63,534 nt of DNA, filler included, from Asterionella formosa (GCA_002256025.1; 16 parts of 16 records of this genome joined end to end with filler, not necessarily neighbours in it), one strand, 5' to 3'; shown: positions 1,001-63,534, counted from the whole stretch's first letter. The notes: generated from the letters alone by a model not told the origin. Translations and numbers: made by a program.

Positions 1001-1783
1001 GATTCATGCAATGGTGTGTTACTAATACAATATATAATTTACCGGTAATTATGATATTTTATGTTGCTGCTTGATATCAAGACCATCATTATATTTTGGA
1101 GGGGTATACACATGATCGTCGCCAGCCAGTTGCCGTTGAAGATCCATGTTACAAAATTTACAAAAGTACATCACAGAATGATTGCATTTTACGCCGTGGT
1201 TCGCTTTTGGCTGTACATTGAGGGGGCCAGGACACTGAATTATTCGGTATGCTGAAAAGGGCTACAGTATGTATTTTTATACTGGTTCTACGCACTGTGC
1301 AGTTTCCGTTGGCATGTTACCAGGTACAGTACTGCGAGTATTTACTGCATGCCGTAATTATTACAGTAGCTGGTTACCATTTACCAGGTAGACCACCACA
1401 GGTAATACTTACACTACATATGATACCGGCGCGCCGCTATCATCATTTACATGTGATCGTAGATCATATGTACGTATCGTCACATGTTGACATCATTCTT
1501 GTGTGATGACACGACCCTATGCATTGTTACCAGGTACCAATCGTATGATGTACGCAAGTACGAATACGAGTAGATTACTGGTTTATCATTTGCTTCATTG
1601 CCTCATCATGTGAGCGATCATGATAATCAGCATCAAATCAGAATGATTTTCGAATTTTATTGCTTGTTGTGAGCTCAACTTTGGAGGAGTATCGGTACAC
1701 GATAAAACCATAAAACCGATTGTGCTCATCATAGCATCCTGATTCTTGTCGCATCGCTGCCATATTGCAATCATTTGCTGACA

Positions 1784-3721
1784 ATGGCTGATCAGGGACC
1801 AATGGCATCGTCATCCTTATCCACGAGGGCTCCTTCCAACGTCTTAAAAAGTACGCTTGGAAAAGGCGTCAACGTTCATGGTGTCAATGTGAAATTTCAC
1901 CCAGCCGCTCTGAAGAATCAGCAGAGGGACCTTTTAGGCGCAATAGATCAAGGGACGAGTTCAACTCGCTTCCTTGTATTTACCAAAAATGGTCAGGTCG
2001 GAGCAAGCGCTCAGATGGAGCACACGCAAATCCTTCCAGAAGGAGAGGATAAAGTTGGCTGGCACGAACACAATCCTATCGAAATCTGGGAAAACACCAA
2101 GACTTGTATTGAAGCAGTCGCGAAGACGCTAAAGAGCAACGCTGGAATCGACCTCCTAAAAAGTCCCTTAAAGGCGATAGGTATCACCAATCAGCGTGAA
2201 ACAACCATCGCTTGGAACGTCAAAACTGGTTGTCCCTACTACAATGCTATTGTTTGGGACGATGTGAGAACATCTCATATCGCAGCACAACTGGGAAACG
2301 TGGACAGTTTGAGAGCGAAAACTGGTTTGCCTCTTGCTTCTTATTTTGCTGGGACTAAGGTGAAGTGGATGTTGGACAATGTTAAACAGCTCAGAGAAGA
2401 TATAGAGTCGAAACCAGATGAAGTCAGATTCGGTACAGTCGATACGTGGCTTGCTTACCAACTGACAGGTGTTGAGTCAGAGCAGGACGGAGCCGCGAAC
2501 GTCGGTGGAATTCACGTGACGGACGTATCTAACAGTTCGCGGTGGCTATTTCTCAACATCCATTCTGTACAGTGGGATCAAGAGTTGGTCGATATTGTTT
2601 GCAGTCCTCATTCCATGCCGACATCGTGCTTGCCCAAGATTTGTTCTTCGAGTCAAATATATGCGGTCTGCAAAGCCAGTTGTGGAATTCCAGTTCTTGA
2701 TATGACGCCTATTTCTTCCATCCTCGGTGATCAGCAGGCTGCATTGTTTGGGCAAACTGCCTTTACACCCGGAGAAGCTAAGAATACATACGGTACGGGC
2801 TTGTTCTTGATGATGAACACAGGAACGAAGCTTGTGTCTTCCAATCACGGCTTGTTAACCACAATTGCCTACCAAATCGGAGTTGATGGTGAGGTGCATT
2901 ACGCCCTAGAGGGAAGCGTGAGCCATGCTGGCTCTACCATTCAATGGCTTCGGGATCAATTGAACTTGATTGAATCTGCTCAACAGTCAGAAACTTTTGC
3001 TGAAACAACCACACACAATGATGGACTATACTTCGTCCCAGCCTTTTCCGGTTTGTTCGCACCTCACTGGAGATCGGACGCGAGAGCTTGCATTGTCGGC
3101 ATGACAGCAACCCATCACAAGGGTCACATTTGTCGTGCGGCGTTGGAGGCTGCAGCATACCAGACCCGCGAAGTATTTGATGCAATTTACGCAGACTCAA
3201 ATGTCCAGTTGAAGGCCTTGAGAGTAGATGGTGGGGGAACAGTGAGCAAGCTCTTGATGCAGTTCCAATCTGATATCATTAATGTTGATGTTGTCAAGCC
3301 AGCAGTAATGGAAACAACGAGCATGGGTGCTGCTTTTGCTGCTGGTTTGGCAGTCGGTGTATGGAAGGATTTGGATGAACTCAGGAATCTTTGGACTGTT
3401 GCTGAGACTTACACGCCTAGCATGGACGAGGACGAGCGTCAAAAGTATTGGAGTGGTTGGCAAAAAGCAGTTTTCAAAAGCTTGGGATGGATCGAAGACG
3501 ATATGCCAAGAGAGACGAAGGACGAAAATGAATCAAAGACAACTTTTGCACATGCTACATCAACACGAGAAATCGCATCTGCTAGGAAGCATATACTTGT
3601 AACAAAGACGGAGGGGAAATCAACAGCAACAGCAAAAGAATCTGGAACTAGTTTTATTTTTGTTATGACTGCGATGCTTGCTGGCATGGTTATTGGAGTT
3701 GCAGTTGGAAGGAAACATTGA
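1784..3721 (+). CDS. GK: Glycerol kinase (FGGY family) with C-terminal hydrophobic tail
   Basis: Motifs GAIDQGTSSTR, GITNQRETT, GDQQAALFGQ, KNTYGTG, YFVPAFSGLFAP, LRVDGG and ETTSMGAAFAAGLAVG. First ATG at 1784; no introns needed. Confidence 0.96.
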   Translation: MADQGPMASSSLSTRAPSNVLKSTLGKGVNVHGVNVKFHPAALKNQQRDLLGAIDQGTSSTRFLVFTKNGQVGASAQMEHTQILPEGEDKVGWHEHNPIEIWENTKTCIEAVAKTLKSNAGIDLLKSPLKAIGITNQRETTIAWNVKTGCPYYNAIVWDDVRTSHIAAQLGNVDSLRAKTGLPLASYFAGTKVKWMLDNVKQLREDIESKPDEVRFGTVDTWLAYQLTGVESEQDGAANVGGIHVTDVSNSSRWLFLNIHSVQWDQELVDIVCSPHSMPTSCLPKICSSSQIYAVCKASCGIPVLDMTPISSILGDQQAALFGQTAFTPGEAKNTYGTGLFLMMNTGTKLVSSNHGLLTTIAYQIGVDGEVHYALEGSVSHAGSTIQWLRDQLNLIESAQQSETFAETTTHNDGLYFVPAFSGLFAPHWRSDARACIVGMTATHHKGHICRAALEAAAYQTREVFDAIYADSNVQLKALRVDGGGTVSKLLMQFQSDIINVDVVKPAVMETTSMGAAFAAGLAVGVWKDLDELRNLWTVAETYTPSMDEDERQKYWSGWQKAVFKSLGWIEDDMPRETKDENESKTTFAHATSTREIASARKHILVTKTEGKSTATAKESGTSFIFVMTAMLAGMVIGVAVGRKH

Positions 3722-5247
3722 ACAAGTATGAAGAACAATGGACTATCTTTTTTACCAGAAACTATTATCATGGTATCTGGTAGCAGACCTAGACCAAAGT
3801 AAAAAGATAGAATGAGTTTTGTTACTGGTACTTCATGGAATGACGAACACTGTTAATCTACAGCACATGTTAGACATAAAATACTATTCTTGATAGTAGA
3901 GGAATATTACACCATACCTCCGGTATAGTCATTCAGTGGTGAACAGGTGCAGTATGGTGGAGATTATTACAACCAAGTAAAATGAATGTGCCACAACTTG
4001 AATGAATGAATTAACGGAAGATTGCCTGCTGTTATGGGCAGTATATCCAACAGGGTATGTAATAAATTCATAAAACACACATTAGTACAATAAAGCATTT
4101 GTTAAATGTTTTCTGCATCAGGTGGCACATGATGGATTCATTGAGACTGGTGCAACATCTGTTAATAATGTGTTCCCTTTCCTTTACTAGTTTATCAGAC
4201 CTTCCTACTCCTTCAAACCCACTCTTTGGATTCATTGAACTTCGATACAGATCCCATCTGGCTGAAGCAGTTCTTGTTGCAAAAAATCGCTGTGTTGAAG
4301 CAGTGCACCTCCAAAGTTTGTACTTGACCGCATTTCTGTTATATCACTCTACCATCACTCCCCAAGCTTTCCAAATAGGAGTTGCCAAAATGATTGTAAC
4401 CCCCTAAAACACTCATGCTACATGGTGCCAATTTTTAAACTGACACTCACAGAAAGGGTGTATATTGGTGAAAGCTCCGTTTAGCGATACACATTTACGT
4501 TTCACTCGTAAGAAGTGGTTTCTTCATACAATTCACAATATTATACTGGTGTGATGCGTAGAGTATGGACATTGTGACCGGCTTGTAAAATTTTGCTATA
4601 TTAATAGATTACCCGTATTTTACAGTTATTTGCAATCAAAGTACCGGTACATAAGCCGCACCAGAGATCATCGCTTACCGGTATTCGATGAGCAAGAGCA
4701 AAGCCAGCAACAAGGAAATTGTTCAAACCAAGCAAGTACGGTGGTTCATAGCAGAGTCTGGTACTGGTAATAATACCGTGATCATCATCGCTCAGTTACA
4801 ACGTACTAAGAATAGGTACCGGTACTCCTGCTCAGTATCATTCTGCATATCATTGGGTACTATAATTGATAATTAAAAACATACAAAAAATAACGAGCAA
4901 AAATAATAAAATCATTTTTGTTTTATTACGAAAGGCAGGGTCTTGGTCAAATGTTGATGATTGATTGTGGTTCCCGCTACCATAACAAGACATAGTATAC
5001 AATACAAACCGACAGATCTCATCGCTTGTCCCTCACACGTTGTAAAATCAGCGAGAGCAAGCGAAGGATATGCGTGCAAGGACCTGCTTTCTTGCCTTGT
5101 TCCCTGTTACCACCTTTGTTCTTCCAAGGAATATACCGGTGTTCTTAGTTTCCACAAATTAGCATTGGCTGACGTTGCGATCATTTCGAATCCTCCACCG
5201 ACGATTCAAATTCGACTTGCTCCACAATTTCAACTTTATACGTACCT

Positions 5248-8200
5248 ATGGAATCAGACGAGGATAAAGATGGAGATCTAGCCCGCCGACAGCGGGAGAT
5301 CTCGATGTTTTCTGCATTGGCAGCTGGATGCGCAATCACATCGGATACTACTGACCCAGAAGCAAATTTCACAACTGCTCAATCAGGAGATATCCAGCCG
5401 TTTGTGACCGAAGAATCGATAATGTCACGAGAGCACAAGGATTCAGTGCCCTCGTTTGCGGATGCCACTTCGAACGTTGACGATTCCGGTACCTTTGAAA
5501 TTAAGTCACAGTCGAAATCTACATCGGAGGCAGTCTCATCCAACCTCGAAGCGGCACTGGCTGCGCTTACTGGGGAAGAACCTTCGAAGCCTGTTGCAGC
5601 GGCATTTTTCCCTCCGACTGTTGCGCGCACCCCAGCAACGTTGAATCAACCAATCATAGCCATGCATAGTGAACCAGTTTTTTTGCCACGACCTCTCTTT
5701 TACGGGCCATTGATACCACCGCGAGTGTTGCGCGAAACTAGACAACTTGTGGCCGAAGCGATGAAGGAAAGAGGGATCGAAGGCAGCGCCAAGAAACCTC
5801 CACGCATCAGTCTTCTCCCACCCCAAATTCGAAACCTGATTGGAGCTATCGACGCATTTGGATACGGGTTAAGTCCTTTCCCATCTGACGATGAACCCGA
5901 TGAATCTGATCCTTCCTATTTCACTGGAAATTCATACGTATCCACTTATCAACCTGTTTGGGGTGCGTCGACACGAGCTACGCGTGAGAATGAACGCAAG
6001 CGGAAACGCATTATTCGACTTTACTCCTTGGATAGATCCGCAAAAGGAGAAGGAACTCGTGAATGTAGTAGCGACATCGACCCGGCAACAGCACCTCAAG
6101 AATCGACTAACAATCCCATCGAAAAACAACCTCAAACTCCACCTTCCGCTGACAGTGGGTCTGAGAAAGTTAGATTTTCTCAGTTGCACTACCGGAAAGA
6201 AAGCAGCCTAAAGTCAATGGACGATTCAGAACAAACAGCGGCAAAGTCCCATAGTTACATCAAAGGTCATGGAACCGCACCAACGACTGAAACAGACAGG
6301 AACCATTTGGCGCATCGTGCTACTGAAAACTTTCCTTCAAGTGCAAGCTTAAAAAACTCACTAGAACAGAACAAGACACAACGTCCTGTCGGAAACGAGA
6401 AGGTTCAAAGTGAGCCGAGATTAGAGTCTACCCGTGAACCGGTTACCGATAAAAATCAATTTACAAATTGGCTACTTTCCGGCGAAAGCGGCGACATGGG
6501 AAAGCCAAGTGCCTCGAAGAAGGCAATATCAGAGAAAGAGCTTTTCTCGCAATGGGCTCGAGGAGAATCACCCAACACACCATCGTTTGGGTCTAGATCA
6601 GGAACCGGGGAATTGAAATCGGAAAGGAAACCTGTAAATTCTGAAACTTTTCGTAATCTTGTTCCTATTCATGACGATAGCGACGACGACTCAGTTGTAG
6701 GATCGGAGATGAAAAAAAAAGTGGGCATAAACGAGCATCTCGATGCAGCACTGAAATCATTAGCGCAAGAAAGTGTCGCTCTAACTGGAAACACAACAAC
6801 CGCTAGCGAGAGTATGTCAGCTGCAGATTCTCAGGCATTTCTATCCCAATTGGCGCGAACAACAATTGGCGGACGACCACTCACGAACCTGGAACTCACC
6901 AACGGTTCCATTCCACTCTATGAATGCGATGATGCGTCGTTGCCGAGTGAGTCAGATCTTGGCATCTACGAAACCAAGGAAGAGCACCTAAGAAATATCG
7001 AAATCAAAAGATCGCAAGATATTGTCGAAAAGTATTCTGTCCCAGATATTTTCTGTCCTATTTCTTGTCCCAACCCCTGTTCAGACCCGGACGACAATCA
7101 CAGTTGGAACTCCAGGTCGACCGTTTCAAAGAAATCAGTTAGTACACAGCAGACAGGCCTTTTGCCAGTTCCCGAAACTGTTGGCAATCGGAAAAACCAA
7201 TTCGTTTCTCCCGGAAGAAAAATCAACCATTCCTTCAATGACAACAAATCAGTGCAACGGGGGGCAAGCAGTACTTCAGCTTCACTCCTGCCGACGGCCC
7301 AATCCCCTAAAGCAAGGACAATAGAACTGAAAAAAGCAACAAAAGCTTATAATCAGCAAAACTCGGTGGTTACTAATGTTAGATATGGTTGGTGGAGTAT
7401 TCGTGACCAAGACGAGCTGACCGAGGAAGACGCGGAAAACGAGTGCTATGCCAAGGAAGTTGAAACAAGGTTTCATCTCCCTCCCTTTGAACATGCGGCA
7501 GACTCTTTGCTCATCAGCAATTCATTGTCTCCTTCTCCATCTATTCTAAAAGAAGAGAATTCGCCTCTTTCTCACATGCATCCTGCTACTTCAATTGCCA
7601 ATACGCTACCATTTCTCTCTGACCGTCCTCCTAGTTGGAGGTATATTCAAATAGACGCAAAAGCAGTTGGGTTCAGACCAGTCGGAGGTGAGATTGAGCC
7701 TCTATTTTGCTCGTTGGCGATTTATCACGTGGACACCCATCGCAGTAGCACCGCAAGTGCTAGGGACGCGCCCACTCCGAATTTGCAACGCTGCGGGAGA
7801 GTGACAGAAGTACTCAACTTTGATGTGGTGACCGATAAGGATATCGAAGCTCGTTGTCAATCAGCCCTTTGGCCGTATTTGGAAGGCAGGGACGATGTAC
7901 CGGCGTCGGAACGCACACAAGGAACTCGATGTGGTGTCTTTCCGATTCCCTCAAACTTGAATCTGGTAAATTTGTATGCGATAATTATTGTGCGAAAAGT
8001 ATTCTCAGATGAGTCAGACATAGATGTGTACATGCCTTTACATGAGAACTCCGAAAGTAAAGGAATGTATCCAAGGTCACCAGGATTAGATTTGACCGGG
8101 TACAGATCGACAGCCGAAAAAGCTAGTCAAAGGCACGGAAAAGTGTTAATGCCTTTCGCTTTTGGAGTGGCACCCATTCTTCAAGTGTTTGGCACCGATG

Positions 8201-11200
8201 TACCGACAGTTGCGGCAAGTCGCGCAGTAGGTATCCCTCTGTTTCGGTTAACCCCAGGTTTAGGAGATAAACCCATCATTGATCATATAATGGTAATGCT
8301 GTATCCAAGGTAAGTTGATTTTATCATGGCTGTCCACAAATATAATCATATTGACTAACAGCAATTGTCACTGCCTTAGAGCGGATCACCAAAATGCAGG
8401 CCCAGCTCCATTGACAAATGGTGGGCAAGCAATGTTGGTAATGCGGAACTATGGATTTCTTGGTTTGCACAACGTTGTGAATAGCAAGAGCAAAATTGCT
8501 CGACAGAGACTTGTGGACCCGTCGGGAGAACTTCAACTTCGAGAGTGCCGGTCCCCACAGAATGCGGCTGATTCACGCATGCATCACTTTATTGGTCGTT
8601 CCGATCGAGATTATGTTGCTCCAGCATGGCACGAAAGCTTTGTTTCCGAGCCTACAACTAATGGCGGACGGAATGTGATCGAAGTAAGACGTATATCGAT
8701 GAAAGAGACTGAGCGCAAGGAAAACTCACCCGAAAACGCTACTGCCGCGAAGGATGCAGTCGTCAATCCAAATTTTTATGCCCAAGAGCTTGCTCCAGTA
8801 CCGTTGCAACTAAATCCACCCTCAGGTAGCCCATTGTATAGTTCCTCAAGCAGGACGAGGAGGACTGGTTTAGGTACGAATCCGGAACCCTCGTTTCACA
8901 CAGCGTTCTGCAACGAACTACTGTGCACTCCAAGACTGCTGCACAATTGCCCCAGGGGAAATGTTGTCATAAGGGTAGAGTTTCGCGAGCTTGAATGGAG
9001 AGATGACCTCAGTGGGTTTCTAGCAGAACTTCCTCAGTACGGCCCAAGTATGTACAACCCTAGGCGTGGCCCTGCGTTTGTAACCGAAGCGTTTACATCG
9101 TGCCTACCATCGACATCGTTCTCTTACTTCATGGACGAATTCAAGCTTAGACTTCCACTTACGTTGCAGCGGTACGACCCATCGGTAAACCGCAAGCTTG
9201 TTATTCTCTTCTCAGTTTTTCGAGTCGCGAACAAGACGAAAAAATCATGGACTGAACGGTTGGTGACCAAAACAGGAAAAGCAATTACGCAGCGACTTGG
9301 CGCATCGAAACTCCCAGACAGTCCTGACGAGTCTACCAGTATTTCTGGTGAAGACTCTGACGGGCAGAAATCAAAACTCACTTTGGCTTGTTGTGGTTAT
9401 GTGCCAATAACGCTCCACAGTGAAATCTGCAGCCTTATTGGCAGCGGCCTTTTCGACGTTAAGATGTCGTACACCGCGTCTTTTGCACCAGATGGAGTGA
9501 GTTCGACATCTGGAGCACTGATCCTTCGTCAAAATTTGTCTTTGGACAGGCATCATCTGTCACGATCAGATTTGCCGATGTCGGGCGGTTTGTCTACTAA
9601 TGATCCCCACGAAGTGGTTGGCGATTCAGGTGACCGGCTTGGCTTCGGAGCAGACGATATTTTAGACGATTCTCTGTTTGGAAGCGAACGCGCGTTTTCC
9701 GAAGCTCATACAAATCCAGAGAATGTTCCCTCTGATTATGAAACAACAATCAGTGCCGTTTCCGAAGCGACAATGGATCTTCCTGCAAAAATCACAACCA
9801 TTAAACCATCAGAAACCATGAGCCTACAAGTCCGAATTGTTGTGCGATCGTCACTTCATCCTCAAAACGCAACGCTTAGGGATTTCCTGCAGCGTTTTCC
9901 TGACCTTCCCGTTGCTTTGGATGCATCTGCTCTTCGCCCCCTGTCCATATGGAGGTTAGATAGAAGGGATTTGATTGCATATCAGGAAAAGGAGGTGGTT
10001 GCAGTGAACACATACCAAGCCGATGAAGAAGTAAGTCGGCTGATTGTGTCCACAATTGATATTAGCAAGCCATCGCTTTGTCCCCCTTCAGTGACTTCAG
10101 CTCATTGGGTTCGCACGGTATCGCAACTCCTAAGGCTTGCCGTCTCGGGAAATGGTGAAGCTGCTGTGCTATGGGCAAATCCAGCAGCATTAATTCCATT
10201 GCGTATTCACGCCTTCGCTTCCTTTCTACAATTACTCAGTAGTTGTTCGGCCTATTTGATGAAGAATGGTGCCACACAACTTGATGGGAAAAGTAAGTGG
10301 AATGTGACAACGTTGGGTAGACTTGTTGCTATGATCTTCGATGAGTCGATGATGTTTGAAGATCGCACAAGCCATGCCGACGAGCCATTTGACCCTGAGG
10401 ACTGGACACTGGTACCAGATACAGGACCAGTACCACCAAAGTATGACGAAAGTCACTTTGAAGTATTGGCGAAAAATGGACTTAAGAAGAGACACAACCG
10501 AACAAATTCTGATAATTTGTTCCTTAGCACCGAGGCTAGAGACAGTTTTGGCTTCGGCACCTCCGACGGATTGAAGGGACAGAAAAAATTAGGGAATCAA
10601 GACCCAGTATCTCTTTCGCCCGATGTCAACATGATCCTATCGGCTATGAACCATAAAGAAATCAAGAGCCTCGAAGAAATTGATTCCGCTTTAGACCTTC
10701 AAGGGCACCTCCAACGACATGATCAGCTAGTAAGAGCAGGAAAGGTTGATTCCAAAACCGACTTTCAACATGCATTAATGGCTGGCGCTGTTGATTATTC
10801 TTTTACTGATAATACGTCTGCATTCAATGGTGGAAAAGCCATTGGCGTTGGCAGCGGCGGTGTCAACAGTAACATCCGACGTAAATTCATGACTGTCCCT
10901 TCGTCTTCTTTGGCTACAATCAAAGAAGACTTGGACGGTGACGAACAAGCCGAGTCAGACGTGTTCATGGGACATGCTGGGCAACCTAAAGCCCCGAATT
11001 ATCCTTTGGATTCAGAAATGATAATCAGTGAAAAGAACAGTTCCATAAAGCAAATGCGCGTTCCAAAGGTGAGCAAAAGTATCGCCATCCCAACGAGGTT
11101 GGACGCAGACAAACAACTAATGCAATTGGAAGCGAGAACTGTGGTAGTAAAAGATGAGGACATCGAAAGTGCAGGGGCCGCATTTTTGGACGTGTTAGGA

Positions 11201-14200
11201 CAAAACCTTGGATACAGGTAAGTTGTGTCAACATTTTTTTTCTTCAATGCATTCGGCCTTCCTCACACATCTTCCACAAGATCTATACCAATGAAAATTT
11301 CTGTTGGTGATGAACTGCGAGTTGGACGCACCAATCATCGAAAAGCGCGCAGTCACTCCAGTAGTATTGACTGGACTCTCCCTGACATTGACTTGATGAC
11401 TGAGAGCAGTCAAACTGATGCGTCCATTGTATCTATTCATAGCAGCACACCAACAAATGACGGAACGCGAGTGACGCCGCGTAGCGAAGAGAGAAAGGGC
11501 ACAGGAGAGTTTTCCTCTGAAATGGATGTTTCAATGTCAGCACTGAAAGACGAAGGCAAGAATGTTCGAGCTTTGCCAAATTATATCGATCGTATTCTCA
11601 ACATCGGAAAAGCAAGTTATCCAGTGCGCTGGCACCCATTCGCCTATGAGGTCATTATATTTCAATGGGTGGCCCTTTTGAAGGAGCAACGACGAAGCGG
11701 AGAGAAAGTGAGCGAGAAAGGCGAAAGGCGATTGCCTCGCAATGACTACCCACAAGGTGCAGATCATGAAGGTACAAGTGCTCTAACGGATGCCGCAAAT
11801 CGAGCCCGTGGAGTGACCATCGCATGTGCTCCTGTTCTATTCGAGATTATAAAGAAGAGTTTAGGTTGGAGGCTTCACAGCTTAATTCGCAGGGCCGATT
11901 CAAGTGAAATGAATCCCTTGCAGAATTCTTGTCCACCTCTAGTTGCACTTGATAGTTCCATCATGTCCAACATTGAGTATTTGATTACTATGTTGACTGA
12001 TGCCTGTATCGATAACCGCAATTTCGATTCTTGGGAGTACAGACAGACAAGCATTGATGTCAACGACGCAATTGTGAGGTTCATTCGAGATTTGTTCGCA
12101 TTTCTTGACACTCCAGTTGTCCACCGGCTTATTTTGATTTATTTTTCTCGCTTTGGTGTTAAGGAAGGGAAGCGCTGGCAAGATCGAGACTCCAAAACTG
12201 GTCTAAGATGCTCTTGGGAAGTCTGCAAACTGCGACTAAACGCAGTCACTACATTCATCCGATTCCAGGATTTCACAAGGATAAACTCACCTCAAATGAT
12301 GAATTGGGGATCCTGGCCGTTGCGAGCATCCTCGCAAGAGACAAGGAAATTTTTCAACGAATCGCTAAAATTGTTTCTTTCCTTTGAAATGTCGAGTTTT
12401 ACAAATGCGGAAGGACCTAATGACAAGTGCATTGTTTTCCCAGCCATGAAGCCTCACTGGCTCGCCGAAATCGTTATTGATGTTTGCTTGTCCGGGACAG
12501 AACATGCCGAACAGCACATCCAGCACCGAGCCGCGTCATTGTTACACGAGCTTTTCTGGTCTCAGAGCCAAGAAGCAAGGGCAAACGGAACATCGCCTAT
12601 TGTGGCCAGCATGTATATTACTTTCCTCGTCAAAATCTTGAATCATGTTTCGTATATTGCGAGTCTGGCTCCCAAAAGTCAGCTTCGCCAAGATATAATA
12701 CCGTGTGTAATCTTTGTTGTTCAATGTGCCCCTGTCTGTCTCCTCAGAGGACTTTGGAGGAAGCTATGCAAAGCAGCCGAAGGAAAAGGGAATGATGAAA
12801 GATTTGGTGTCACATTCACCTCAACGGCTTACACCGACACAACGAGCAAGGAAAGAGGAAATGCATCCCCATCATTCAGCGAACGCATTTTCGAGCCTAA
12901 TGTTCTTGACATGTTTAGCCTTTTCAATTTAGCACTCGCGTCGTTTGAATACGAAGGATGCGAGGATCAAGTCGAAACTGAAAACGGAGCAGAAGACAGT
13001 GACCAAATTTCAATTTGGAGAAAGGAATTCCTTCCTGCTGTGGAGCAAGATTTGCATCAAAGACAACGATATCCAAGAATAAATGGTCGTGAACGGCTAG
13101 AGGAGGAAGTATCGAAGGATGCCAAGAGGTTTACAAGTTCCACTTCCCGAAAGTGGCATTCCCACGATGGAGCCATTGTTGTCATCAACACATGCCGATA
13201 CATTGTTCGAGAAATGGTTTTTATGAAAAGTATGACTGTTCACAACGTTTCTGCTGGACAGTCGGCCACAGAAAACACCAATCTGAGAGACAGCTTCGTT
13301 GACACAAATCTTCATTTTGATGGGTTCCTCGATCTCTATAAGGACAGAGCAACTGATGAACTTTGCTTTTCAGACGCAGACACCGTTGTTTTCGTAAGGG
13401 CAGTTTCGTCAGTATACCTCCACTGTCTCGTTCTCCGGCAAAGCGACATCGTAAGAGTGAAGACCTTGATCGCGTCCGTCGAGCTTGTCAAAATCTACGG
13501 CGTGAAAGGCTTCCTGCAAGCTGTCGGTGAAACACTGCAACACTGGATGCGTGTTGTTATCCTCCATTGTGGGGCCCGACGTGCCCAGGTGCGAGTGCAA
13601 GCTCTGGAGTTTTTAGCCCTCATTCTTCGCGTGACGTGGAACTGCTATGGCAGTTTCTCGCGAGTGCGATTACCTCTATTAGCAGTCCAGACTGAGGTGA
13701 TGGAAAGGATTGTAGCAACCGCAGCAACTCGTTTCTATCGCGAACAGCGCCGTATGGGTATGCAAATCCAGTCTCTGTCGAACGACAGCGCCGAGGCGAG
13801 TTTATCACTTCTTTGGCGTACCCTCGATCGCCTTCATCACCAGTCAGCAAGCCAAAATATCTCCTTTAGGAGTGATGTCATTCGGTTGGCAGAAAAAACT
13901 AAAAAGCTATATAGAGCATATATCGCCGCTCATGCATTAGCAATTCTCAACAGGTCACGATCACCATTGTCCCCAAGTAACAGTATGACAAACGACGAAG
14001 ATGAGCGCTCTGACGTCAAGGAGATGCTACAGAGTCGCCGAATTAGCGTGCATCGCATTATCATGGCATCCGCTGGGTATTGCAAAACATTTGTTGGCAC
14101 ACAGAAGGCATCGTCACAAGGGCCACCGGTGGCCCATAACGAGGCCGTCGAAGATGCTTTCCTCGCTGCAGCTGATGTTTTTTCCCCAACAGAGCTCCCT

Positions 14201-16777
14201 TCTCATAGGGTGGCATGGCTTCAAAAGCTTGCTGAATTTCATGCTTCAAGGTCAAAGCATGCAGAAGAAGCAACGTGTCGGTTTCAAATTCATTGTACTT
14301 ATCAGCAAGCCGCTCGAATGCACGAGAGCATTTGGTCGAGTGTTCCATTCTTACCATGGGCAAATGATTCTAGCGATGGCGTTCATATAGATGGCGAAGG
14401 ACCAGCAGGTGACCCAGACGATTACTACGACGCTGACTATGACTGCGAGGATCAATTGTTTGATGATGCTGGCTCTTACGAAATGAACCTTGGTAAACAG
14501 ATCGACAAATCAAATTCGTTCCGACGAATCTTTTATCGAGTTGCAAATAGTGTCAGAATGAGAACAGGTGACTGGGATACAGGGGGGAATAAAAACCTCT
14601 TTTTTGGGGTCACTTTCGCATCGGAATATGGAACAGTAACGCCATGGATTTCGCTTCGCGAAATGGAGGAATGTATGGTCGAGGAAGCTGAAGCAGCAGG
14701 GGACTTGTACTTAAAGGCTGGTATTGCAGAAAGCAGTCGATACTCTTGGGGCCTGGCAACACAATTCTATTCCCGAAAATTTAATTATGCCAAACTGGGT
14801 CGTGCTTATCGTCGTCTGTCGACCGTTGTTCAATCACGAGTTCCAGTGGTAGATACAAATGAGCAAGCCCTAGAACTTTCTCATCCTCTGGGACGTTTCT
14901 ACAGAGTTTGGTTTCATGGCGGCGCCCCAGATGAGTTGATCGGCGCTGAGTTTGTGTATCGTGCTTCTGGTTCTGTGAAGCTTGAAGAGTTTGGCAAACT
15001 CGTGTTTGAGGCTATAAACTGTATCTTACCGGATAACACCCCCATCGATCTCCTTTTGGATGACGGACGACCAGAAGAATCTTCTTCTGGCTTGCGACCG
15101 CTTTCCAGGAGACTGGGACCAACACCTCTTGAACCTGTGAAGATCAAAGTCACGCCACTTCGCCCTCTGGTGCGGCGTGCAAATACTATCAGAGGAACAC
15201 CTGAATGGTTCAATCGTCACACAGATATTGCATTTCAGACATCAACACCTTCTGATGGAGGTAAGGTGTCGAAACGTTCCATTGCAAGTGGGACATTCGA
15301 AAAGGAAAGGAAGTCTCGATTCGGTACGACACATCGCCAACGTGATCATTCACGGTCGCACAGCGCAAGTGTGTTTTCATCAAGTGGAAGTATTCCATCC
15401 CGAGTTTCTGACATTGGAAGTACTGGACTGAATCCAATCGACCCATATAGGGAGTCTGGAGAGCGCAGTGTTGCTGGTGGTGGCGACTTAGTTGGTGTGG
15501 ATCGATTCACGTTTTTCCAACCAGTGAATAAGAAGACTCGCGGCCGATCCTCTCGTGATTGGCTGAAATCTACGGGGGATTTCGCTGACAAAAGCCTTCG
15601 AGTTACGCTTTTGCAAGTCGAACGGGCGTTCCCAGCGTGTGTGGCTCGACAGTCTGTTACCAATAGAACTGTTTTTACTCAAAGCCCATTAGAAGCTGGG
15701 GTTCACGCAGTGTGCAGCTGGTGCTCTGTTCTTTTCAGAACTGCAGTTGCCACAAATGGACAAGCTGTTCTGGGTAAAAAATTCGATGGAATTGGAAAGC
15801 AAGCGTCCAAGGTTGTGTCTGACTGCATTCATGCAAGCCGAGTAAAAGAAATGGGTTTGACACTCTTGAAACAGCATGGGTCAGTTTCTGAAGAGCCAGA
15901 TAGTGACCTCGGCATCATGATGTTTCAGTATGGTCGGCTTTCCGAGGAGGAAATTGTTCTGTTTCAAGTAAAGCTTGCGCGTGGTATAGTAGTCTTTATG
16001 GAGATCTTGCACCTCCTGATCACTCACAACCGTGATTTACTCCTTGCAGTTGTCGATGCGAGGAAAAGGAACGACTCTGAATCCCTCCACACTTATGGCA
16101 ACACCAGCCTGCAGCGAGCTACGATCATGAATCGTGAGGCGACCGGCTATGACCTTCCAACTATCGCTACCCCTGAGCGACCAGGCAAAAATAATCATCT
16201 TCGAAATTTTTCTAGTCTTACCCGATCACAAAATCGTGACTATTCAGACGAGCGTAGTATTCCAGCAGGCGATCATAACAATCGCGAGCCCACGATCCCC
16301 GAAAACAAGAGCAATTGCATCGCTACAGTTGGGAGTAATGATCGAACTGATTCAGCTATTGCCATTCAAAGTGAATTGCAACGTGCATTTATTTCCATGA
16401 CAAAAGCTCTCTACCCACAAATTTCACGAGTTCTCCAGAATGAAACACCCCGATGGCTAAAGCAGTGCACCCAGGAGTATTATTTTTCTTCATATGCCTA
16501 CCGCCAAACTATAATTCCCATGGCGGAGGAGTTGTTTTTCTTTGCTCAAGATGAGCTGCCGGCACCTGACGAATCTGTTATCCCAGATGACGGTTCCGAA
16601 TTCATGATCTCACAAGTTCCATCTGTAGTTTCACAAGCTGAAATAGGATTGTCAGGATTTATGCAATCTTCAGAATCTCCATCTGGATCCCAGGCAGAGA
16701 GTTCTATCAAAAGTCATCCACACTATAGGTATCACAAAACCGCCTCCTCAGATGGATCATACAGACAAGTTGTTTAA
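5248..16777 (+). CDS. DOCK-family (DOCK-C/D-like) guanine nucleotide exchange factor; exons 5248-8309, 8380-11217, 11281-16777 (~3798 aa)
   Basis: Three long ORFs join in frame through phase-2 introns 8310-8379 (GTAAGT..CTAAC..TAG) and 11218-11280 (GTAAGT..AAG). Motifs: EIEPLFCSLAIY; DHR-1/C2 NELLCTP..FMDEFKLRLPLTL..ILFSVF; DHR-2 PSHRVAWLQKLAEFH, GRFYRVWFHG..EFVYR, FPACVARQ. Confidence 0.88.
8310..8379 (+). other. Spliceosomal intron 1 of DOCK gene (70 nt)
   Basis: GTAAGT donor, CTAAC branch site, TAG acceptor; removal restores the frame (..YPR|ADHQ..). Confidence 0.88.
11218..11280 (+). other. Spliceosomal intron 2 of DOCK gene (63 nt)
   Basis: GTAAGT donor, T-rich body, AAG acceptor; removal restores the frame (..LGYR|SIPMK..). 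Confidence 0.8.
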
Positions 16778-17290
16778 CAAGATTTTAGTTGATGTTAGGA
16801 TTTTGTACCAATCAACTTAGATTTTCATTTTTCACTTTGACTCATCTATTTTAGCAATTCAAATAAAATTCTTGGTTTATTTCTTCAAAGCAGAAGGTAT
16901 ATAGCCGTGAATGGTTTCCATGTGTTCTTAACCTGCTCCCAGATTTATGGCTGTATGAAGTTTCTATTTCTGGGAGTATGGCTCAATGGTCAAGCACGCT
17001 GTCCCTGATTGCTTGGATGGTGATCATGGGGCTGAAGTTTATCTGACGACTCCCGCATTTACCAGTACAGGTATTTCTATGCGACTTTTTTGCATTCATT
17101 ATACCGGTACTGGTCGTATCCGGAGAAAGTTCAATGATGCTGAATAAAATAATTGCTCTATAAATGATTTTTGGCAGTACATGATGTATATACCGGTAAT
17201 ATGATTATGTGACACCGAGGATCATACAAATAAAATACCGGGTAAATAGGTATTTATCGTATCAGCAAAGTATTCTACAGCTCTGCCGCC

Positions 17291-29345: not shown

Positions 29346-29346
29346 T

Positions 29347-44273: not shown

Positions 44274-45132
44274 CCTACCGGTACCAGGTAACTGATCATC
44301 ATTCGTCATAGTAAATGGTAGTGCACGCTAACCAGTACCTTAGTACCGATAGTTTGCACATTCAAATATATTTTGCAGCCGCCGGGTCGTGCATGTGAAA
44401 CATATTTATGATACGAGTAGGTATACTATCGGTAGAGTAGCAATATAAAACATTCAGCGATGGAGAATCTATCTTTACATATTTTATGCATTTGAAATGG
44501 AATCTATATACGTACGCGCAAATTTCCACTCATTTGAATTTTTCAAACGGAATCATTGATATTCAAATTAGCACATAAAAGTTCTTAGTTCCAGGGAATT
44601 TCGGCAACCCTAAGCAATATTTTAATTTTTGCCTAGGGGTTCAAATGCAGGAACCTTAAGTTCCCTAAAAGTCACAATCATTTCTTGAATTCATAGGAAT
44701 TTCCTGAATCGTCATGGTGTTTTCCTGAAAGTCCTATAGTCACATGCTTTGTATTCTCGTTTTTGCAACTTGAAGAATTCCGCTATTTATTTCGCTGAGT
44801 CGTGCTATGAAGAAGATGTTCTTTAGTACTATATATGATAAATATGTCGCTGTCCGGTAACACATTGTCCGTTTCAGGAAAATGACCGCAGGTTGCAGCA
44901 GGTACAGATGGCTAAATCCTTATTTAAGCAAACCTACCGCAACTTGCCGGTACCAGGGTAGTCGAGTTCTCTTCTGATAGAGTTCTGATATACCGGTAGT
45001 CTAAATAAGCATTCCTAACCCTATGGGTACATNNNNNNNNNNNNNNNNNNNNNNNNNNNNNNNNNNNNNNNNNNNNTTAATTAATTAANNNNNNNNNNNN
45101 NNNNNNNNNNNNNNNNNNNNNNNNNNNNNNNN

Positions 45133-46456: not shown

Positions 46457-46556
46457 NNNNNNNNNNNNNNNNNNNNNNNNNNNNNNNNNNNNNNNNNNNN
46501 TTAATTAATTAANNNNNNNNNNNNNNNNNNNNNNNNNNNNNNNNNNNNNNNNNNNN

Positions 46557-47880: not shown

Positions 47881-47980
47881 NNNNNNNNNNNNNNNNNNNN
47901 NNNNNNNNNNNNNNNNNNNNNNNNTTAATTAATTAANNNNNNNNNNNNNNNNNNNNNNNNNNNNNNNNNNNNNNNNNNNN

Positions 47981-49304
47981 ACTTGTCATAAACATGACAC
48001 TTCTGTCCGACTCGGTCGATGGAGCAAAAGAAACGACACCAGCGTCCGGTTATTTGCAAATGGCTGTACTTGATTAAAAACAAATAACCATTTTGTTAGT
48101 AACTATTAATGAGTAAATAAAAATTCTTACTTCCATCTTTCCCCATAGGAATCAAGCAAAAACGAAAGTAGTCCTGACAAGGAATACTGTGTCGTCGATC
48201 CGGAAAGTGGGGAACTCATTCGTCTCACAGTAGCCGAAAAGGAGCGTATCTTTCTGGACGCGCTTCAGTCCTACGATGCCGCTGGAAGGCAAATGCTCAA
48301 GGATGACGAGTTTGACCTATTGAAGGAAGATTTGCAATGGAAGAACGGATCTGAGCATATATATAGCTAAAACAAGGAAAGACGACACAACAATGAACGT
48401 GATGGCTGGTTGTTGAGGATACCCGTATGTGATATGCATCAATCCATCATGTCACAAATCATATTATAGTGATGCACATATCAACGCATCCGTATACTTA
48501 GATCCTATCCACTGTATAATACTATCATATTAAGTGTTGACTTTAAGTGTATACATTAAACGACAAACACATATAATAATTAACATACTTTATGATTGCT
48601 TGATTTATTTTTTATGATGTCTTGGTAACACTTGCGTACATATTTTATCGTATTTTATTGTCATGGTACTATTTTTACATAATCATATTTTGATCAAAAT
48701 TATATCATAAACATTTGATAAAATCATCATAATTTTATGATCAATTTATCATAGCTATGTGATGTACTTTATTCAATATTACGTGTCATACTTTGGTGAT
48801 GTATGCATCGATGTAACCCTATCATGATATCACAGTATCATCTTATCAATCATGATGAGATGATTGGGAAGCAAATGTATTCTGCGATGTGCTACAGGGT
48901 ATATTATTATATCACGCAATTTAGTAGCGAAGTCACTCCGCCTGTAATGTACTAAAGTCGACAGTGCACATACCGGTACTCAGACGCTAATCAGGTTTGA
49001 GGCAACGGACAGCGGTTCCAACGAGCGAATGATGATACCACGGGTACCAATTTTTCCAACGAAAGAACTTGTCTCTCTATTGATGAGGATGACACGGACA
49101 CGGACACCGACATTTTCAGGAGCAAACAACAATGAAGAGACCCACTTCGTCTGCGTCGCTCTATTGATGGTAACAAAGATGCGGACAAGTTCAACAGTGA
49201 ATACAAGAACAACATACCATTGAAAACCAGTCGACAGTGTCTGCACGCACACGCCAAGCAAGTTTGAGGCAACGGACAATTTCAACAAGCAAATGACGAT
49301 ACAG
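47981..49304 (+). repeat. 1324-bp contig, copy 3
   Basis: Near-identical to copy 2 (offset 1424). Confidence 0.97.
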
Positions 49305-49404
49305 NNNNNNNNNNNNNNNNNNNNNNNNNNNNNNNNNNNNNNNNNNNNTTAATTAATTAANNNNNNNNNNNNNNNNNNNNNNNNNNNNNNNNNNNNNNNN
49401 NNNN

Positions 49405-50728
49405 ACTTGTCATAAACATGACACTTCTGTCCGACTCGGTCGATGGAGCAAAAGAAACGACACCAGCGTCCGGTTATTTGCAAATGGCTGTACTTGATTA
49501 AAAACAAATAACCATTTTGTTAGTAACTATTAATGAGTAAATAAAAATTCTTACTTCCATCTTTCCCCATAGGAATCAAGCAAAAACGAAAGTAGTCCTG
49601 ACAAGGAATACTGTGTCGTCGCTCCGGAAAGTGGGGAACTCATTCGTCTCACAGTAGCCGAAAAGGAGCGTATCTTTCTGGACGCGCTTCAGTCCTACGA
49701 TGCCGCTGGAAGGCAAATGCTCAAGGATGACGAGTTTGACCTATTGAAGGAAGATTTGCAATGGAAGAACGGATCTGAGCATATATATAGCTAAAACAAG
49801 GAAAGACGACACAACAATGAACGTGATGGCTGGTTGTTGAGGATACCCGTATGTGATATGCATCAATCCATCATGTCACAAATCATATTATAGTGATGCA
49901 CATATCAACGCATCCGTATACTTAGATCCTATCCACTGTATAATACTATCATATTAAGTGTTGACTTTAAGTGTATACATTAAACGACAAACACATATAA
50001 TAATTAACATACTTTATGATTGCTTGATTTATTTTTTATGATGTCTTGGTAACACTTGCGTACATATTTTATCGTATTTTATTGTCATGGTACTATTTTT
50101 ACATAATCATATTTTGATCAAAATTATATCATAAACATTTGATAAAATCATCATAATTTTATGATCAATTTATCATAGCTATGTGATGTACTTTATTCAA
50201 TATTACGTGTCATACTTTGGTGATGTATGCATCGATGTAACCCTATCATGATATCACAGTATCATCTTATCAATCATGATGAGATGATTGGGAAGCAAAT
50301 GTATTCTGCGATGTGCTACAGGGTATATTATTATATCACGCAATTTAGTAGCGAAGTCACTCCGCCTGTAATGTACTAAAGTCGACAGTGCACATACCGG
50401 TACTCAGACGCTAATCAGGTTTGAGGCAACGGACAGCGGTTCCAACGAGCGAATGATGATACCACGGGTACCAATTTTTCCAACGAAAGAACTTGTCTCT
50501 CTATTGATGAGGATGACACGGACACGGACACCGACATTTTCAGGAGCAAACAACAATGAAGAGACCCACTTCGTCTGCGTCGCTCTATTGATGGTAACAA
50601 AGATGCGGACAAGTTCAACAGTGAATACAAGAACAACATACCATTGAAAACCAGTCGACAGTGTCTGCACGCACACGCCAAGCAAGTTTGAGGCAACGGA
50701 CAATTTCAACAAGCAAATGACGATACAG
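49405..50728 (+). repeat. 1324-bp contig, copy 4
   Basis: Near-identical to copy 2 (offset 2848). Confidence 0.97.
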
Positions 50729-52152: not shown

Positions 52153-53802
52153 NNNNNNNNNNNNNNNNNNNNNNNNNNNNNNNNNNNNNNNNNNNNTTAA
52201 TTAATTAANNNNNNNNNNNNNNNNNNNNNNNNNNNNNNNNNNNNNNNNNNNNGGGAAAAGAAAGCATTGCTTTCAGCATCATCAATCTATACACAAGCCT
52301 GCGCCACCTGATGTCGTCAATATAGCTACCTCGACTTCATCAATGAAGAAGTCAATGAGTGGAGCATGTGAGGAAAATCGGGGTTGAGGTTTTCTTGACG
52401 CCAACGTGGACCTGCTTGGCTGAACTCCTTGCAGATGAAGGCATTGAGTAACCTGGGCCTGTGAAGCCAAAGGATAAAGAAAAATCTATGACAAGGGTGC
52501 GTTGTGAGATAGTGTTTAGGAGGGGGGAGCAAAAGTTATCATAGCTGAACGCATTCGAAACTTGTATAGACAATAGATGGTGGCATGCCATGGCTGCTCT
52601 TGGCTGACAGCTGCCAAGTCAAGTACAAACTCAACGAGGGTGCACAAAAGACAGTCCAATTTTAATCGACTGACTGATACTTAGTTGTGAGACTCACCAT
52701 TCTGGAATGGGGTGGACTTTGATCATTGCTTCGTTCAAAGCACAATCAATTCGAATGCTGTCCAGTGAAACAGCCAATGAAAACAATTGTGGCGAAAAAG
52801 CGCAGAACAGATCAAGAGATTTCAAAGGAATTAAAATAACAACAGCAGGGCATATATGGTGCACTACTCCTTGTGAAGACTAAGAACTATATTTGATCAT
52901 TTCCATATTTCATACTATACAGGTGCAGCATGGATGACTCCTCCCGCCATTTCATTAGATATGCAGCCATGTTGCGATAATTCTACACAACCTATGGGAT
53001 TGGTAGTCTGGTGGTCATCACTCCCGCATTGTATATACCAGCCAGTAGGAGTCATGTATGCATGCATGCTGCGATAATTCTTACAAGTCATAAAAATTTG
53101 GTAGCTTGGGAGTTATCACTTCCGGACTGTATACAGGGGAGGAAGGGGTTGCATACATGAGCAACGACTACTCCGCCCGGTATAAACTATCAATGATTCT
53201 TGATTCGTTTATCCTATAACTTTGATCATAACATATTGATCATATGATGAACGGTGTCGTTGATGAGAAAATGAACAATCAACATTCATTTTCAAGAATC
53301 AGGATTAATTGATCTTAAAAATATGATCAAATGATCCTAAACACATGAGCATATTCAGTTTGTCACTGCACTATTGTGGTATTTCCATGATGGAAGTAAT
53401 TACCAGCAATTATACAGTACTACCGGTAGGCCATATGAATTTTGGTCAATATGTCTATATACATAAATGTATGATTTCGACCATTTGAAAAATTGGTGAT
53501 GACTCCCGTTTATTAAGGGGCTTAATTAAATCAGCCACTGACTTGTAGGTACAAGAATTGACACAAAAAAATTGANNNNNNNNNNNNNNNNNNNNNNNNN
53601 NNNNNNNNNNNNNNNNNNNTTAATTAATTAANNNNNNNNNNNNNNNNNNNNNNNNNNNNNNNNNNNNNNNNNNNNCCTTACCAATATTGCAGAGCAAGCT
53701 TTCGCTTTTTTCACCAGCAATGCATTCCTTTACAGACAACAGATGGAAATGATGGTTTTGCAGTGTGATGGCAAGCAGTGCAGTGTACTTGCAAGCGGTA
53801 TA

Positions 53803-53864
53803 TACTGGTACTGGTACTGGTACTGGTACTGGTACTGGTATTGGTACCAGTACCAGTACCGGTA
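53803..53864. repeat. (TACTGG)n/(TACCAG)n hexamer array with orientation switch
   Basis: 6x TACTGG, TATTGG, 2x TACCAG, then TACCGGTA. Confidence 0.95.
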
Positions 53865-54774
53865 GACTACCAGAACCAGAACCACAACCTGGTACAAGTT
53901 TTTACGTGGGTGTATATTGATTTTCTTATCCAATCATTCTATATAGTTTAATACCACGTACGCACGCACACACTGAACTGAACCTCCACCTACTGGTAGA
54001 CAACAAACCAGTAAGTAATCACCAGCCAAGGAGATCATGGTGAAGAGAAACTTTGCGACCTCTAGGTACCAGGTACCAGGTACCGCCCGGAATCTTAAAC
54101 TACCGGTACCTGGTACCGGAATACCGGATGCGTAGGTAAAACCGTCCTTCCCCAGTCAGCCAACCCAGCAGCAGCAGCAGCAGCAGCAGACAATGATGTA
54201 CTCGGAGTAAGTTGTTGGTCGTCAAGGGACGAATTCCCCTGAATTCGCTCTTACGCACCTCTTTTTTGCACAACATTCGCACTTGAAATTGCGCATAAAA
54301 TCCACAGGGCGCTTTTCATGGCGGCGGGGTGTGACAAATTGAACCAGCAAAAGATGCTCGATGCTCGATGCACGATGCACGATACAAGGACAAGTCTGAA
54401 TTTCTCGTTTGAATCCTTCCATGAATGCAAATTCTTCCATTCACTCAAATTGCTGCGCTAACTCCTCCTCCTCCTCCTTGTCCTGTCGCCTTGACAGAGG
54501 CTGCTCTATTGCTACCGGTATTATAGTCGAATACGCGAGCGTGCGGTCACATCAGCTCCGCAGCTTCCATGGGAGTTCTCGATATTATGTGTGTTGTGTC
54601 CATCCACTGTCCACTGTCCATTGTATGTATCAAAATGGTTCCATTCTATTACCATCACCCGGTAGCGAAGTGTCCAAGGCCTCCTATCAACAACTGTTCA
54701 ACAAATATGTAATTCAAGTTGGAACATGGGAACACGAGAAGAGCATGGTGTGGTACGAGATGATTATTTCGTGA

Positions 54775-58185: not shown

Positions 58186-58399
58186 TTACTGATGACATAA
58201 TAGTGGTCCATATGTGTTATGCACAGAATGCTGCTAGGGTTAGATAAAATATGTAGGCAAGATTGGACTCTTGATAATTTTTACTGATCTACCGGTATAT
58301 TTGTTGAACAATACTTTTTTCCTTTGGAGATGTAGCCCCTTGATGTTTTGGAACTAGAGTCACAGGGTTCTGTCCTCTATTGCTATGGGTTTTGCTCCC

Positions 58400-62212: not shown

Positions 62213-62325
62213 TATGATGCAGCAAACTGGTATCCACAATAATTCTGAACTTGAAATTCCTTGATTGGAGGATGAGCCTTTAACATAACTCGTACATAGA
62301 CTGTTACTGATGGTTTGATGTAAAC
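62213..62325 (-). repeat. Gypsy integrase fragment, near-identical to 60526-60637
   Basis: Reverse complement match including TGTACGAGTTATGTTAAAGGCTCATCCTCCAATCAAGGAATTTCAAGTTCAGAAT. Confidence 0.88.
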
Positions 62326-63534
62326 TATGATGATTTACTGTCTCACTGCAGTAGGTCATGAACATATGGTGTTCTGTTGCTTGCTTACTACCTGGTACTC
62401 TGACTACCTGGTACCCCCAGTATATCCCTTCTTACCTGCGACTGGTACTCTGTATATATATATGAAAAAATGTTATTGTCGTATGATTTACCGGTACACA
62501 TGAAGAACTCCCGCCCAAAAAAGGGGCTCCTCACATATAAATAATGATACAATGGGTTATGACTTAGTACACCAATTGAATGGTCTAAATAATTAGTTCT
62601 AATGGATGTAGAAAATATTGATATTAAAATTTTATATCTATATACATGGCAAATATATTTGAAATCGTTCTGTCATGTTAACAAACAATGCCTGCTTCAT
62701 GAAAAGAAATATCGGAGCAAAGCACATGACAAGAAAGGAAAAGTTTACACAATAACAAAAAAACATTGTGGCTTCGACACATTGCGCCTTCAAAGGATGG
62801 AGTATGTTTAACATAATGAAGCCATCAATGTGGTACTTGGATGAAAATCGTTGGGAGGCAGGACAACAACAAATTGGAAACTAAACACACATTTCCTTTC
62901 TTTCAGTTGAATCACAGCCCGTTTCGCTTGTTGGGAAGCACCAATGTAAAACAAAACAAAATTGGTAAGTGCTCTTGTCATTGGACCTATTCACTTCTGA
63001 TGGAACATAAATGACGGACTCGCCAAGTTTACCTTCTCTCAAAGTTAAGCTAACAAAAATGAATCGGTAAGTTTTATTCGGCAACATTGGAAACCTGAAA
63101 CTTACTTATTCAAGAATTTACTGACAATTTACTATTACAGACTTATACATCACTTGCTTTGATTTGGCTGTGGTAAGTGAAGCCAGCAAGAGGATACAAC
63201 CATGATGGAATGACGTGATGTTGCTTGTGTCAGTGTAACATGTCTAGCTAACAAGTCATTCCTTCTCATTGTTACTGTAACTGCATAGGACAATAAAACC
63301 GATCAAACGGAATAGCCGGCGAGTTCAGAATGACACTAACAGCAGGGAGAGAGATGCAACATTAGTAAGGCATTGCTTGGCACAAGATTCAGAAAAGAGG
63401 AAGAAAAGGGCGAGACACGAACAATATACATTGAGCCGAGTAAAGCAGAGAGAAACATTGGGTCGCTGGCATGTAGATTAATAGATAGCATTGCTAAATT
63501 TGATAGTTAAATTATGATCCATTTCAATCTATTT

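Follow-up and report, generated by a model that had tools for sequence, protein, structure and literature searches.

What process strews one palindromic octamer through the non-coding DNA of a diatom? The question is raised by a stretch of 63,534 nucleotides from Asterionella formosa (GCA_002256025.1; hereafter the window), which consists of two 21.7-kb contigs and fourteen 1.3-kb contigs joined by spacers. An initial annotation had described the octamer, TACCGGTA, as a TACC-N(0-1)-GGTA element that might be a factor or chromatin site, a methylation target or a self-propagating mutational signature. We find that TACCGGTA arises as a block insertion at a TA dinucleotide, with duplication of the TA, and we are fairly confident that it is the excision footprint of a TA-targeting element of the Tc1/mariner/pogo type. 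The apparent promoter motif is most likely, in large part, a record of transposon traffic.

The window contains 28 exact copies of TACCGGTA. All the coordinates listed in the initial annotation proved exact, as did the strong over-representation that it claimed: 100 dinucleotide shuffles gave a mean of 0.24 copies and a maximum of 3. Four copies, at 45459, 47547, 48971 and 50395, had been taken for the same site in repeated contigs, and they are indeed one site in four near-identical 1.3-kb contigs. These contigs (45133-50728, each of 1,324 bases and one of them reversed) are probably assembly redundancy, adding three to the count. There remain 25 independent copies in 58,062 non-redundant bases. 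Markov models of orders 2-5, trained on the same 58 kb as were counted, predict 0.48 copies at order 2 (an enrichment of about 50-fold), 1.2 at order 3 and 6.0 at order 4; the motif, for which a Markov background had been suggested as a check, is enriched at each of these orders and ranks first among all 8-mers at orders 2 and 3. At order 5 about 16 copies are expected, a weak test in which the motif itself shapes the model. In the raw palindrome list, TTAATTAA comes first (31 copies) owing to the artificial contig spacers, for example at 21821-21832.

Some related forms are also over-represented. The variant TACCAGTA/TACTGGTA occurs 23 times (2.2 expected), TACCWGGTA 10 times (0.4 expected) and TACCSGGTA three times (0.2 expected); variants one base off the octamer, other than CTGG/CCAG, number just 0-4 each. 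We grouped exact TACCGGTA, the CCNGG forms and the CCAG/CTGG forms into a family of 62 members. Spacer variants had been reported to co-cluster with the octamer, and 46 of the 62 members do have a neighbour within 100 bases, against a mean of 12.9 and a maximum of 32 in 2,000 random draws of TA sites; 17 share a TA with another member. Among the 16 dinucleotides, TA alone frames CCGG as a direct repeat (25 cases, the next best reaching 3). All 16 pairs of outer flanking bases occur around the motif, with G-TA-C in some excess (12 vs 4.4). Since framing is confined to TA and every flank pair is represented, the insert is fixed and is not a copy of adjacent sequence; the element is dispersed and, as the initial annotation held, no single repeat family lies behind it.

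Alleles and paralogs reveal how the motif is gained. Contigs of four runs, compared with 600-20590, show seven indels; of the three that lie in the single-copy part, one is a single base long and the other two are 6 bases long. The two longer ones, with bases absent at 4641 (runs X8 and X16) and at 4815 (X8), take out CCGG and one TA from the sites at 4642 and 4817, and a single TA stays. In a paralog pair, the single TA at 37870 (repeat of 37.3-38.1 kb) corresponds to TACCGGTA at 45459. The motif is present as a 6- or 7-base block, with one TA left in the comparator, at five sites: 4642, 4817, 45459, 58290 and 62389. Because the block is present or absent with a single TA left, the unit is TA + insert + TA and not the pair of half-sites implied by TACC-N(0-1)-GGTA; the paralog comparisons give the direction of change, a gain from a single TA. 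The same five blocks do not support a methylation-driven origin by base changes. The idea of a self-propagating mutational signature survives in a loose sense, but not in its HIP1-like form, in which base changes would make the word. Finally, a 90% identical counterpart of 53787-54472, locus L097, differs from the window by a 5-base TA-CCG-TA gain in L097, and CTGG at 53991 in the window is CCGG there. The sites and related features are listed below.

1040-1047: TACCGGTA 5' of a multi-copy Harbinger-like open reading frame (ORF); other copies show a base change, with no clean gap
1318-1536: three TACCAGGTA ahead of the glycerol kinase gene; the RNA contig ends at 1659, 131-341 bases farther on
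4642-4824: cluster upstream of the DOCK-like gene, with TACCGGTA at 4642, 4676 and 4817 and TACTGGTA at 4762
17060-17244: cluster ahead of the M50 peptidase (EGY-like) gene; the RNA contig ends at 17249, 13-189 bases farther on
24220-24265: TACCGGTA and TACCTGGTA upstream of the Nsp1/Nup62 gene
28280-28325: TACCGGTA and TACCAGTA, non-coding
29371-29372: empty TA in a repeat; a second empty copy lies at 29490, and the copy at 62389 has TACCTGGTA
37320-37327: TACCGGTA inside a repeat whose paralogs have TACCCGTA (base change)
37693-37706: 12-base gain, TA + 10 bases (CC first, GG last) + TA, where paralogs have one TA
37870-37871: empty TA, where the paralog at 45459 has TACCGGTA, as do three duplicates of the latter
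38853-38885, plus strand: candidate element end, CCGGG right after TA
39104-39439: densest cluster, with five TACCGGTA, one TACCCGGTA, three CCAG/CTGG forms and one compound 8-base insert (39274)
40268-40275: TACCGGTA, with the ATG (40304) of a membrane-protein ORF 36 bases on
44178-44290: two TACCGGTA, TACCGGGTA and chained TACCAGGTA, in or beside a 53-base tandem duplication
44903-44960, minus strand: one end of a small inverted-repeat element, adjoining TACCAGGGTA
44991-44998: TACCGGTA, non-coding
45459-45466: TACCGGTA; same site again at 47547, 48971 and 50395 (duplicate contigs)
53421-53428: TACCGGTA, non-coding
53803-53864: array of chained CTGG and CCAG units, the last unit TACCGGTA; of another length in L097
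54067-54115: chained CCAGG units and chained TACCGGTA/TACCTGGTA; the unit number differs between the window and L097 (5 against 3)
54513-54520: TACCGGTA within a 124-codon open frame without Pfam match
58290-58297: TACCGGTA, a net gain of 6 bases, in the decayed version of a 72-base repeat whose intact version has one TA, at 58004
62389-62413: two TACCTGGTA, the first a clean 7-base gain relative to two paralogs, the second at the alignment edge
62489-62496: TACCGGTA, non-coding
Genes in the window: glycerol kinase; DOCK-like protein (two introns); M50 peptidase (EGY-like); a 285-codon ORF; Nsp1/Nup62; a membrane-protein ORF

The family is distributed very unevenly with respect to genes. The coding DNA of six host genes holds no exact copy and one variant in 19,272 bases (700 TA), in agreement with the earlier count of none in about 19 kb of exons. 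Upstream of the same genes there are 12 exact copies and 23 family members in 4,200 bases (359 TA), within windows of 500-1,250 bases chosen by the analyst; at about 600 bases each, the counts drop to 7 exact copies and 14 family members. No member occurs in 8,851 bases (555 TA) of a decayed transposon-like tract at 28.4-37.2 kb. Per 1,000 TA, this amounts to 64 members upstream, 1.4 in coding DNA and 0 in the decayed tract. Clustering in non-coding DNA near gene starts, as first described, is therefore confirmed, with one gene of the six (start at 20313, minus strand) having no family member upstream. Motifs near the RNA contig ends at 1659, 4928 and 17249, which are only a rough stand-in for transcript starts, lie 13-341 bases upstream of them, with one more at 619. 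The ratio of observed to expected CpG is 0.94 in the scar-bearing upstream regions and 0.64 in the scar-free decayed tract. This base composition suggests that scars may target open, unmethylated DNA, TA being plentiful in the scar-free tract. The tract itself (28400-37250) is long, CpG-depleted and without Pfam match.

A cut-and-paste element of the IS630/Tc1/mariner/pogo type would account for the motif as follows. It would insert at TA and duplicate it; on its exit, a few terminal bases would stay behind on each flank because the cuts are staggered, to be fixed between the two TAs by end-joining. The donor ends would begin with CC, and a 4-base overhang would best explain the spectrum. CCGG overhangs would pair perfectly and yield the main form or, when shifted by one, the rare CCSGG; CCAG overhangs would yield CCAG/CTGG, or CCWGG when the register shifts by one. 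Alternatively, the overhang may be of 2 or 3 bases with fill-in. Every scar would add a TA open to a new hit, giving rise to chains, and slippage could then alter array length. The promoter bias would follow from insertion into open, unmethylated DNA together with selection clearing exons. At 39274-39285, a compound 8-base insert stands between TAs, and the same form recurs in a second diatom (see below), hinting at templated repair or at a second element passing through the scar.

A metagenome scan for three adjacent motif forms returned at least 123 loci. We pooled 30 non-redundant loci by shared contig series and composition as a second diatom, assuming that they belong to one species (324,725 bases after masking of the selecting match); one ORF of this set falls in a family whose nearest clusters are from diatoms. 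Among inserts between two TAs, CCAGG/CCTGG occurs 283 times (expected 4.4), CCAG/CTGG 150 times (23) and CCAGGG 30 times (0.7). Other inserts are also in excess: CTC/GAG (151, expected 50), CTCGAG (14, expected 0.5), CAG/CTG (220, expected 82) and GAC/GTC (203, expected 39). The inserts form nested end-plus-end series, as terminal remnants would give, and the CTC and CAG series match published footprints of Stowaway (PMC1925063) and Sleeping Beauty (PMC6943129). The further series of GAC/GTC and GC between TAs, seen in loci L077-L153 of this diatom, points to one more TA-targeting family, GAC-ended. The two diatoms do not prefer the same insert: it is CCGG in the window and CCWGG in the second. 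Where gaps of up to 2.5 kb between ORF-based gene calls are compared, the CC family occupies 72 of 1,679 TA in head-to-head gaps, 51 of 2,664 in tandem gaps and 7 of 1,052 in tail-to-tail gaps (head-to-head vs tail-to-tail, p 2.5e-9); in ORFs, it occupies 20 of 6,524.

The motif is not confined to diatoms. Four loci of an animal-like lineage (L089, L090, L123 and L139) contain non-coding stretches, introns and spacers, made almost entirely of CC, GG, CCG, CGG and CCGG units between TAs, with up to 155 TACCGGTA per 10 kb; an apparent SET-domain gene, judged by eye, lies in this stretch. In the animal-like group, copies differ, among the comparisons listed, by gains of TA-CCG-TA, TA-CGG-TA, TA-CC-TA, TA-GG-TA and TA-CCGG-TA. 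The animal-like loci bear DDE_1 pieces with animal named relatives, and a related transposase is present in L146. Triple-motif scans of viral contigs returned 74 loci and 1 locus, by eye mostly tandem repeats in genes, and a DDE_1 scan of viral contigs confirmed nothing. A prokaryote scan, which is a weak control, gave 14 loci, 8 of them without a further family member beyond the match, and no indication of a dispersed counterpart. Four bacterial loci (L200, L203, L207 and L209) show stacked TA-CCWGG-TA units, 11 of them in 20 kb of L200; these stacks could be scars of IS630-type elements.

A donor element was sought in the window and in the fetched loci. A local DDE_1 profile matched only L089, L090, L139 and L146, and a motif scan, the sole search aimed at Tc1/mariner-type transposases in the fetched loci, found none there. 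Inverted-repeat searches of the window returned duplicate contigs and spacers only, with no convincing TA-flanked pair. A candidate donor terminus is located at 38853-38885, beginning eight bases past an apparent long terminal repeat (LTR) end: in the stretch that starts with CCGGG, 26 of 31 bases are common to positions 2-32 of L097 (minus strand), also right after TA, and the outer flanks of the two are unrelated. Locus L078 has a TA-bounded 10-base insert whose first eight bases are the same as those of this end. No partner of the candidate terminus was found, and the terminus has no match in viral contigs. A small inverted-repeat element, with one end in the window (44903-44950) and both ends in L078 (889-983) and L097 (393-524), was set aside as donor: the L097 copy is flanked by direct CAG repeats, and the far end has no following TA in L097 and L078, which fits a CWG-duplicating type. 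NuwaI has CWG duplication, but its usual GGG ends are not seen here (PMC4482050).

Several observations weigh against an origin by excision. Neither the window nor the fetched diatom loci yielded a complete TA-flanked, CC-ended element; the searches of the window brought up no DDE_1 or Tc1/mariner transposase, and 28 and 135 of its ORFs, scanned against Pfam, gave no DDE_1 or DDE_3. A CCG duplication is another possible reading of the candidate end at 38853, and the small element, with CCAG adjoining its end, appears to land in the middle of scars (3-base duplication) and not to be their maker. Of 30 indels of at least 3 bases, taken from 13 alignments of paralogs or alleles, only 5 have the form TA-CC..G-TA, a count that leaves out the 58290 gain, which the aligner split in two. 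Contigs of depth 3-5, drawn from two metagenome runs, are the basis of the allele polymorphisms. At three sites (1040, 37320 and 44178) the comparable copy differs by a base change with no gap, and some CTGG forms, such as 53991 when set against its L097 counterpart, derive from CCGG via a C-to-T change. The window shows no enrichment of the simple 3-base forms TACCGTA/TACGGTA (4 vs 2-4 expected). The second-diatom loci, chosen for holding three motifs, are a non-random sample. Most indels are ordinary, and the motif sites that have an empty comparator are block gains.

The mechanism that we propose is already known. In elements of Tc1/mariner type, the cut in the non-transferred strand falls a few bases within the element, and the 3' overhangs, repaired by end-joining, leave footprints of the first or last 2-4 bases (PMC6943129). 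Those of Sleeping Beauty (TACAGTA/TACTGTA) likewise consist of two TAs around a few fixed bases (PMC6943129); here, in contrast, the insert is CCGG, CCAG/CTGG or CCWGG, the copies are natural and number 25 per 58 kb, and no donor was found. Stowaway elements of Triticeae leave natural footprints in which short pieces of both ends remain, and they re-insert at a footprint-bearing TA (PMC1925063). End-fragment footprints and re-insertion are common to both systems, but the Stowaway case concerns one intron (PMC1925063), whereas the diatom motif is the top 8-mer of non-coding DNA, forms chains and has a promoter bias. Among pogo elements of oomycetes, the Passer (DD35D) family duplicates TA and starts with CCG in 10 of 15 rows, while Lemi (16 of 17 rows) and Mover (4 of 4) begin with CA, according to Table S1 of PMC7386202, the counts being taken from 47 of its 49 stramenopile rows. 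TA duplication and CCG ends would yield TA-CC-GG-TA, as in TACCGGTA; CCG ends alone do not yield the CCAG and CCWGG forms. The accessible part of the same table has no diatom row under six names (PMC7386202).

The same octamer is known from oomycetes as motif M94 of Phytophthora infestans (PMC3597505) and streme-5 of Plasmopara (PMC10031896). Two of the Phytophthora promoter motifs concern us here, M94/motif-9, which is TACCGGTA, and M93/motif-1, which is TACATGTA (PMC3597505, PMC3520976, PMC10031896); the latter is not enriched in the window (2 copies). In this other stramenopile group the identical octamer is abundant upstream of genes and is read as a factor site. A Tc1 origin of TACATGTA, which is a rare Tc1 footprint, was considered by Seidl and colleagues and rejected on account of the motif's abundance and conservation (PMC3520976). 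No insertion test of the Phytophthora motifs is reported in the accessible parts of these papers (PMC3597505, PMC3520976, PMC10031896). Two bases per end of CCG-ended and CA-ended pogo elements yield TACCGGTA and TACATGTA, respectively, a match of letters only. By analogy, the CCG-ended, TA-duplicating pogo elements of Phytophthora suggest that the footprint reading of its TACCGGTA may be reopened. Our literature search, which took in few subscription papers, yielded no account of the motif or of genome-scale footprints in diatoms among the matches listed. What is new is the unusual density of the scars, their promoter bias, their polymorphism within a species and their bearing on the oomycete motifs.

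Could the octamer instead be the binding site of a dimeric factor or chromatin organiser, kept by selection, alone or after its birth as a scar? The strong promoter bias in the window and in the second diatom is in keeping with such a role, as is the over-representation of TACCGGTA in Phytophthora and Plasmopara promoters (PMC3597505, PMC10031896, PMC3520976). However, selection leaves block insertion, the several insert lengths, chains and copies in decayed repeats unexplained, the preferred insert is not the same in the two diatoms (CCGG vs CCWGG), and a conspecific sample lacks two of the four family members that precede the DOCK-like gene. We hold this explanation to be unlikely; a protein-binding or chromatin role could have been gained later. 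It is also quite unlikely that some other process writes a CC..GG patch at TA, either repair that follows breakage by a lone or domesticated nuclease or a TA-duplicating element outside Tc1/mariner/pogo. That no donor was found would fit such a process, and the 8- and 10-base compound inserts (39274 and 37693) suggest templated repair, but the nested end-plus-end spectra of the second diatom, including Stowaway- and Sleeping Beauty-type series, and the existence of a candidate CCGGG end after TA argue for terminal remnants.

Two further processes would build the motif locally. Slipped-strand duplication of a palindromic unit is suggested by the arrays at 53803 and 54067, whose unit number varies relative to L097, but slippage lengthens arrays and cannot start them: single sites have no copy of the insert beside the empty TA, and for these the empty alleles largely refute an explanation that we find very improbable. 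The other likens TACCGGTA to HIP1, a cyanobacterial word common in genes too, with base changes tied to methylation or biased repair of the central CCGG as its source. HIP1 is tied to methyltransferases and has been modelled as a product of mismatch repair, and the likeness, that of a highly iterated palindromic 8-mer, is one of look only (PMC4390886). An enrichment of about 50-fold at order 2 and the three sites one base off their paralog would accord with base changes. Against them stand the block gain at five sites, with empty alleles that largely refute the idea, the scarcity of one-off variants besides CTGG/CCAG (0-4 each) and the lack of copies in 19 kb of coding and 8.9 kb of unconstrained decayed sequence; the diatom motif, unlike HIP1, is block-inserted and absent from coding DNA. 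We consider such an origin extremely improbable, and excision of a TA-targeting element is the interpretation that we retain.

Other features of the window are given for completeness. Pfam scans identified remnants of Harbinger-, Mutator- and copia-type elements. Among named relatives of the M50 protein, the best comes from the diatom Cylindrotheca closterium (37%), and the sequencing runs in which the DNA occurs are mostly of freshwater origin. A single RNA contig (17249-20035) covers both convergent genes, the M50 peptidase and the 285-codon ORF, with 29 bases between their stop codons; the two genes likely have overlapping 3' ends. Two LTR-like copies (26374-26487 and 38669-38845) are 87% identical, and the second sits behind a G-rich tract and a copia-like remnant.

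Taken more widely, the footprint interpretation leads to a tentative proposal, which we regard as possible but rather doubtful as a whole. In diatoms, probably in oomycetes and in some animals, TA-targeting transposases would cycle through open promoter DNA, and their scars would be the commonest non-coding words and a main source of promoter and intron variation; TACATGTA and TACCGGTA of Phytophthora would be scars of CA-ended (Lemi, Mover) and CCG-ended (Passer) pogo families. If this is true, the link of the Phytophthora motifs to infection-induced genes would reflect transposon traffic or later co-option, and scar density would be a fossil map of germ-line open chromatin. The top motif of diatom promoter searches may be a scar instead of a regulatory word. 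A comparison of strains for a single TA or TA-insert-TA provides a cheap test, applicable to the published oomycete motifs. The scars are a natural record of how diatoms repair transposon breaks, and an identical mutation of 6-7 bases that is recurrent, targets promoters and is polymorphic within a species may be a source of regulatory variation.

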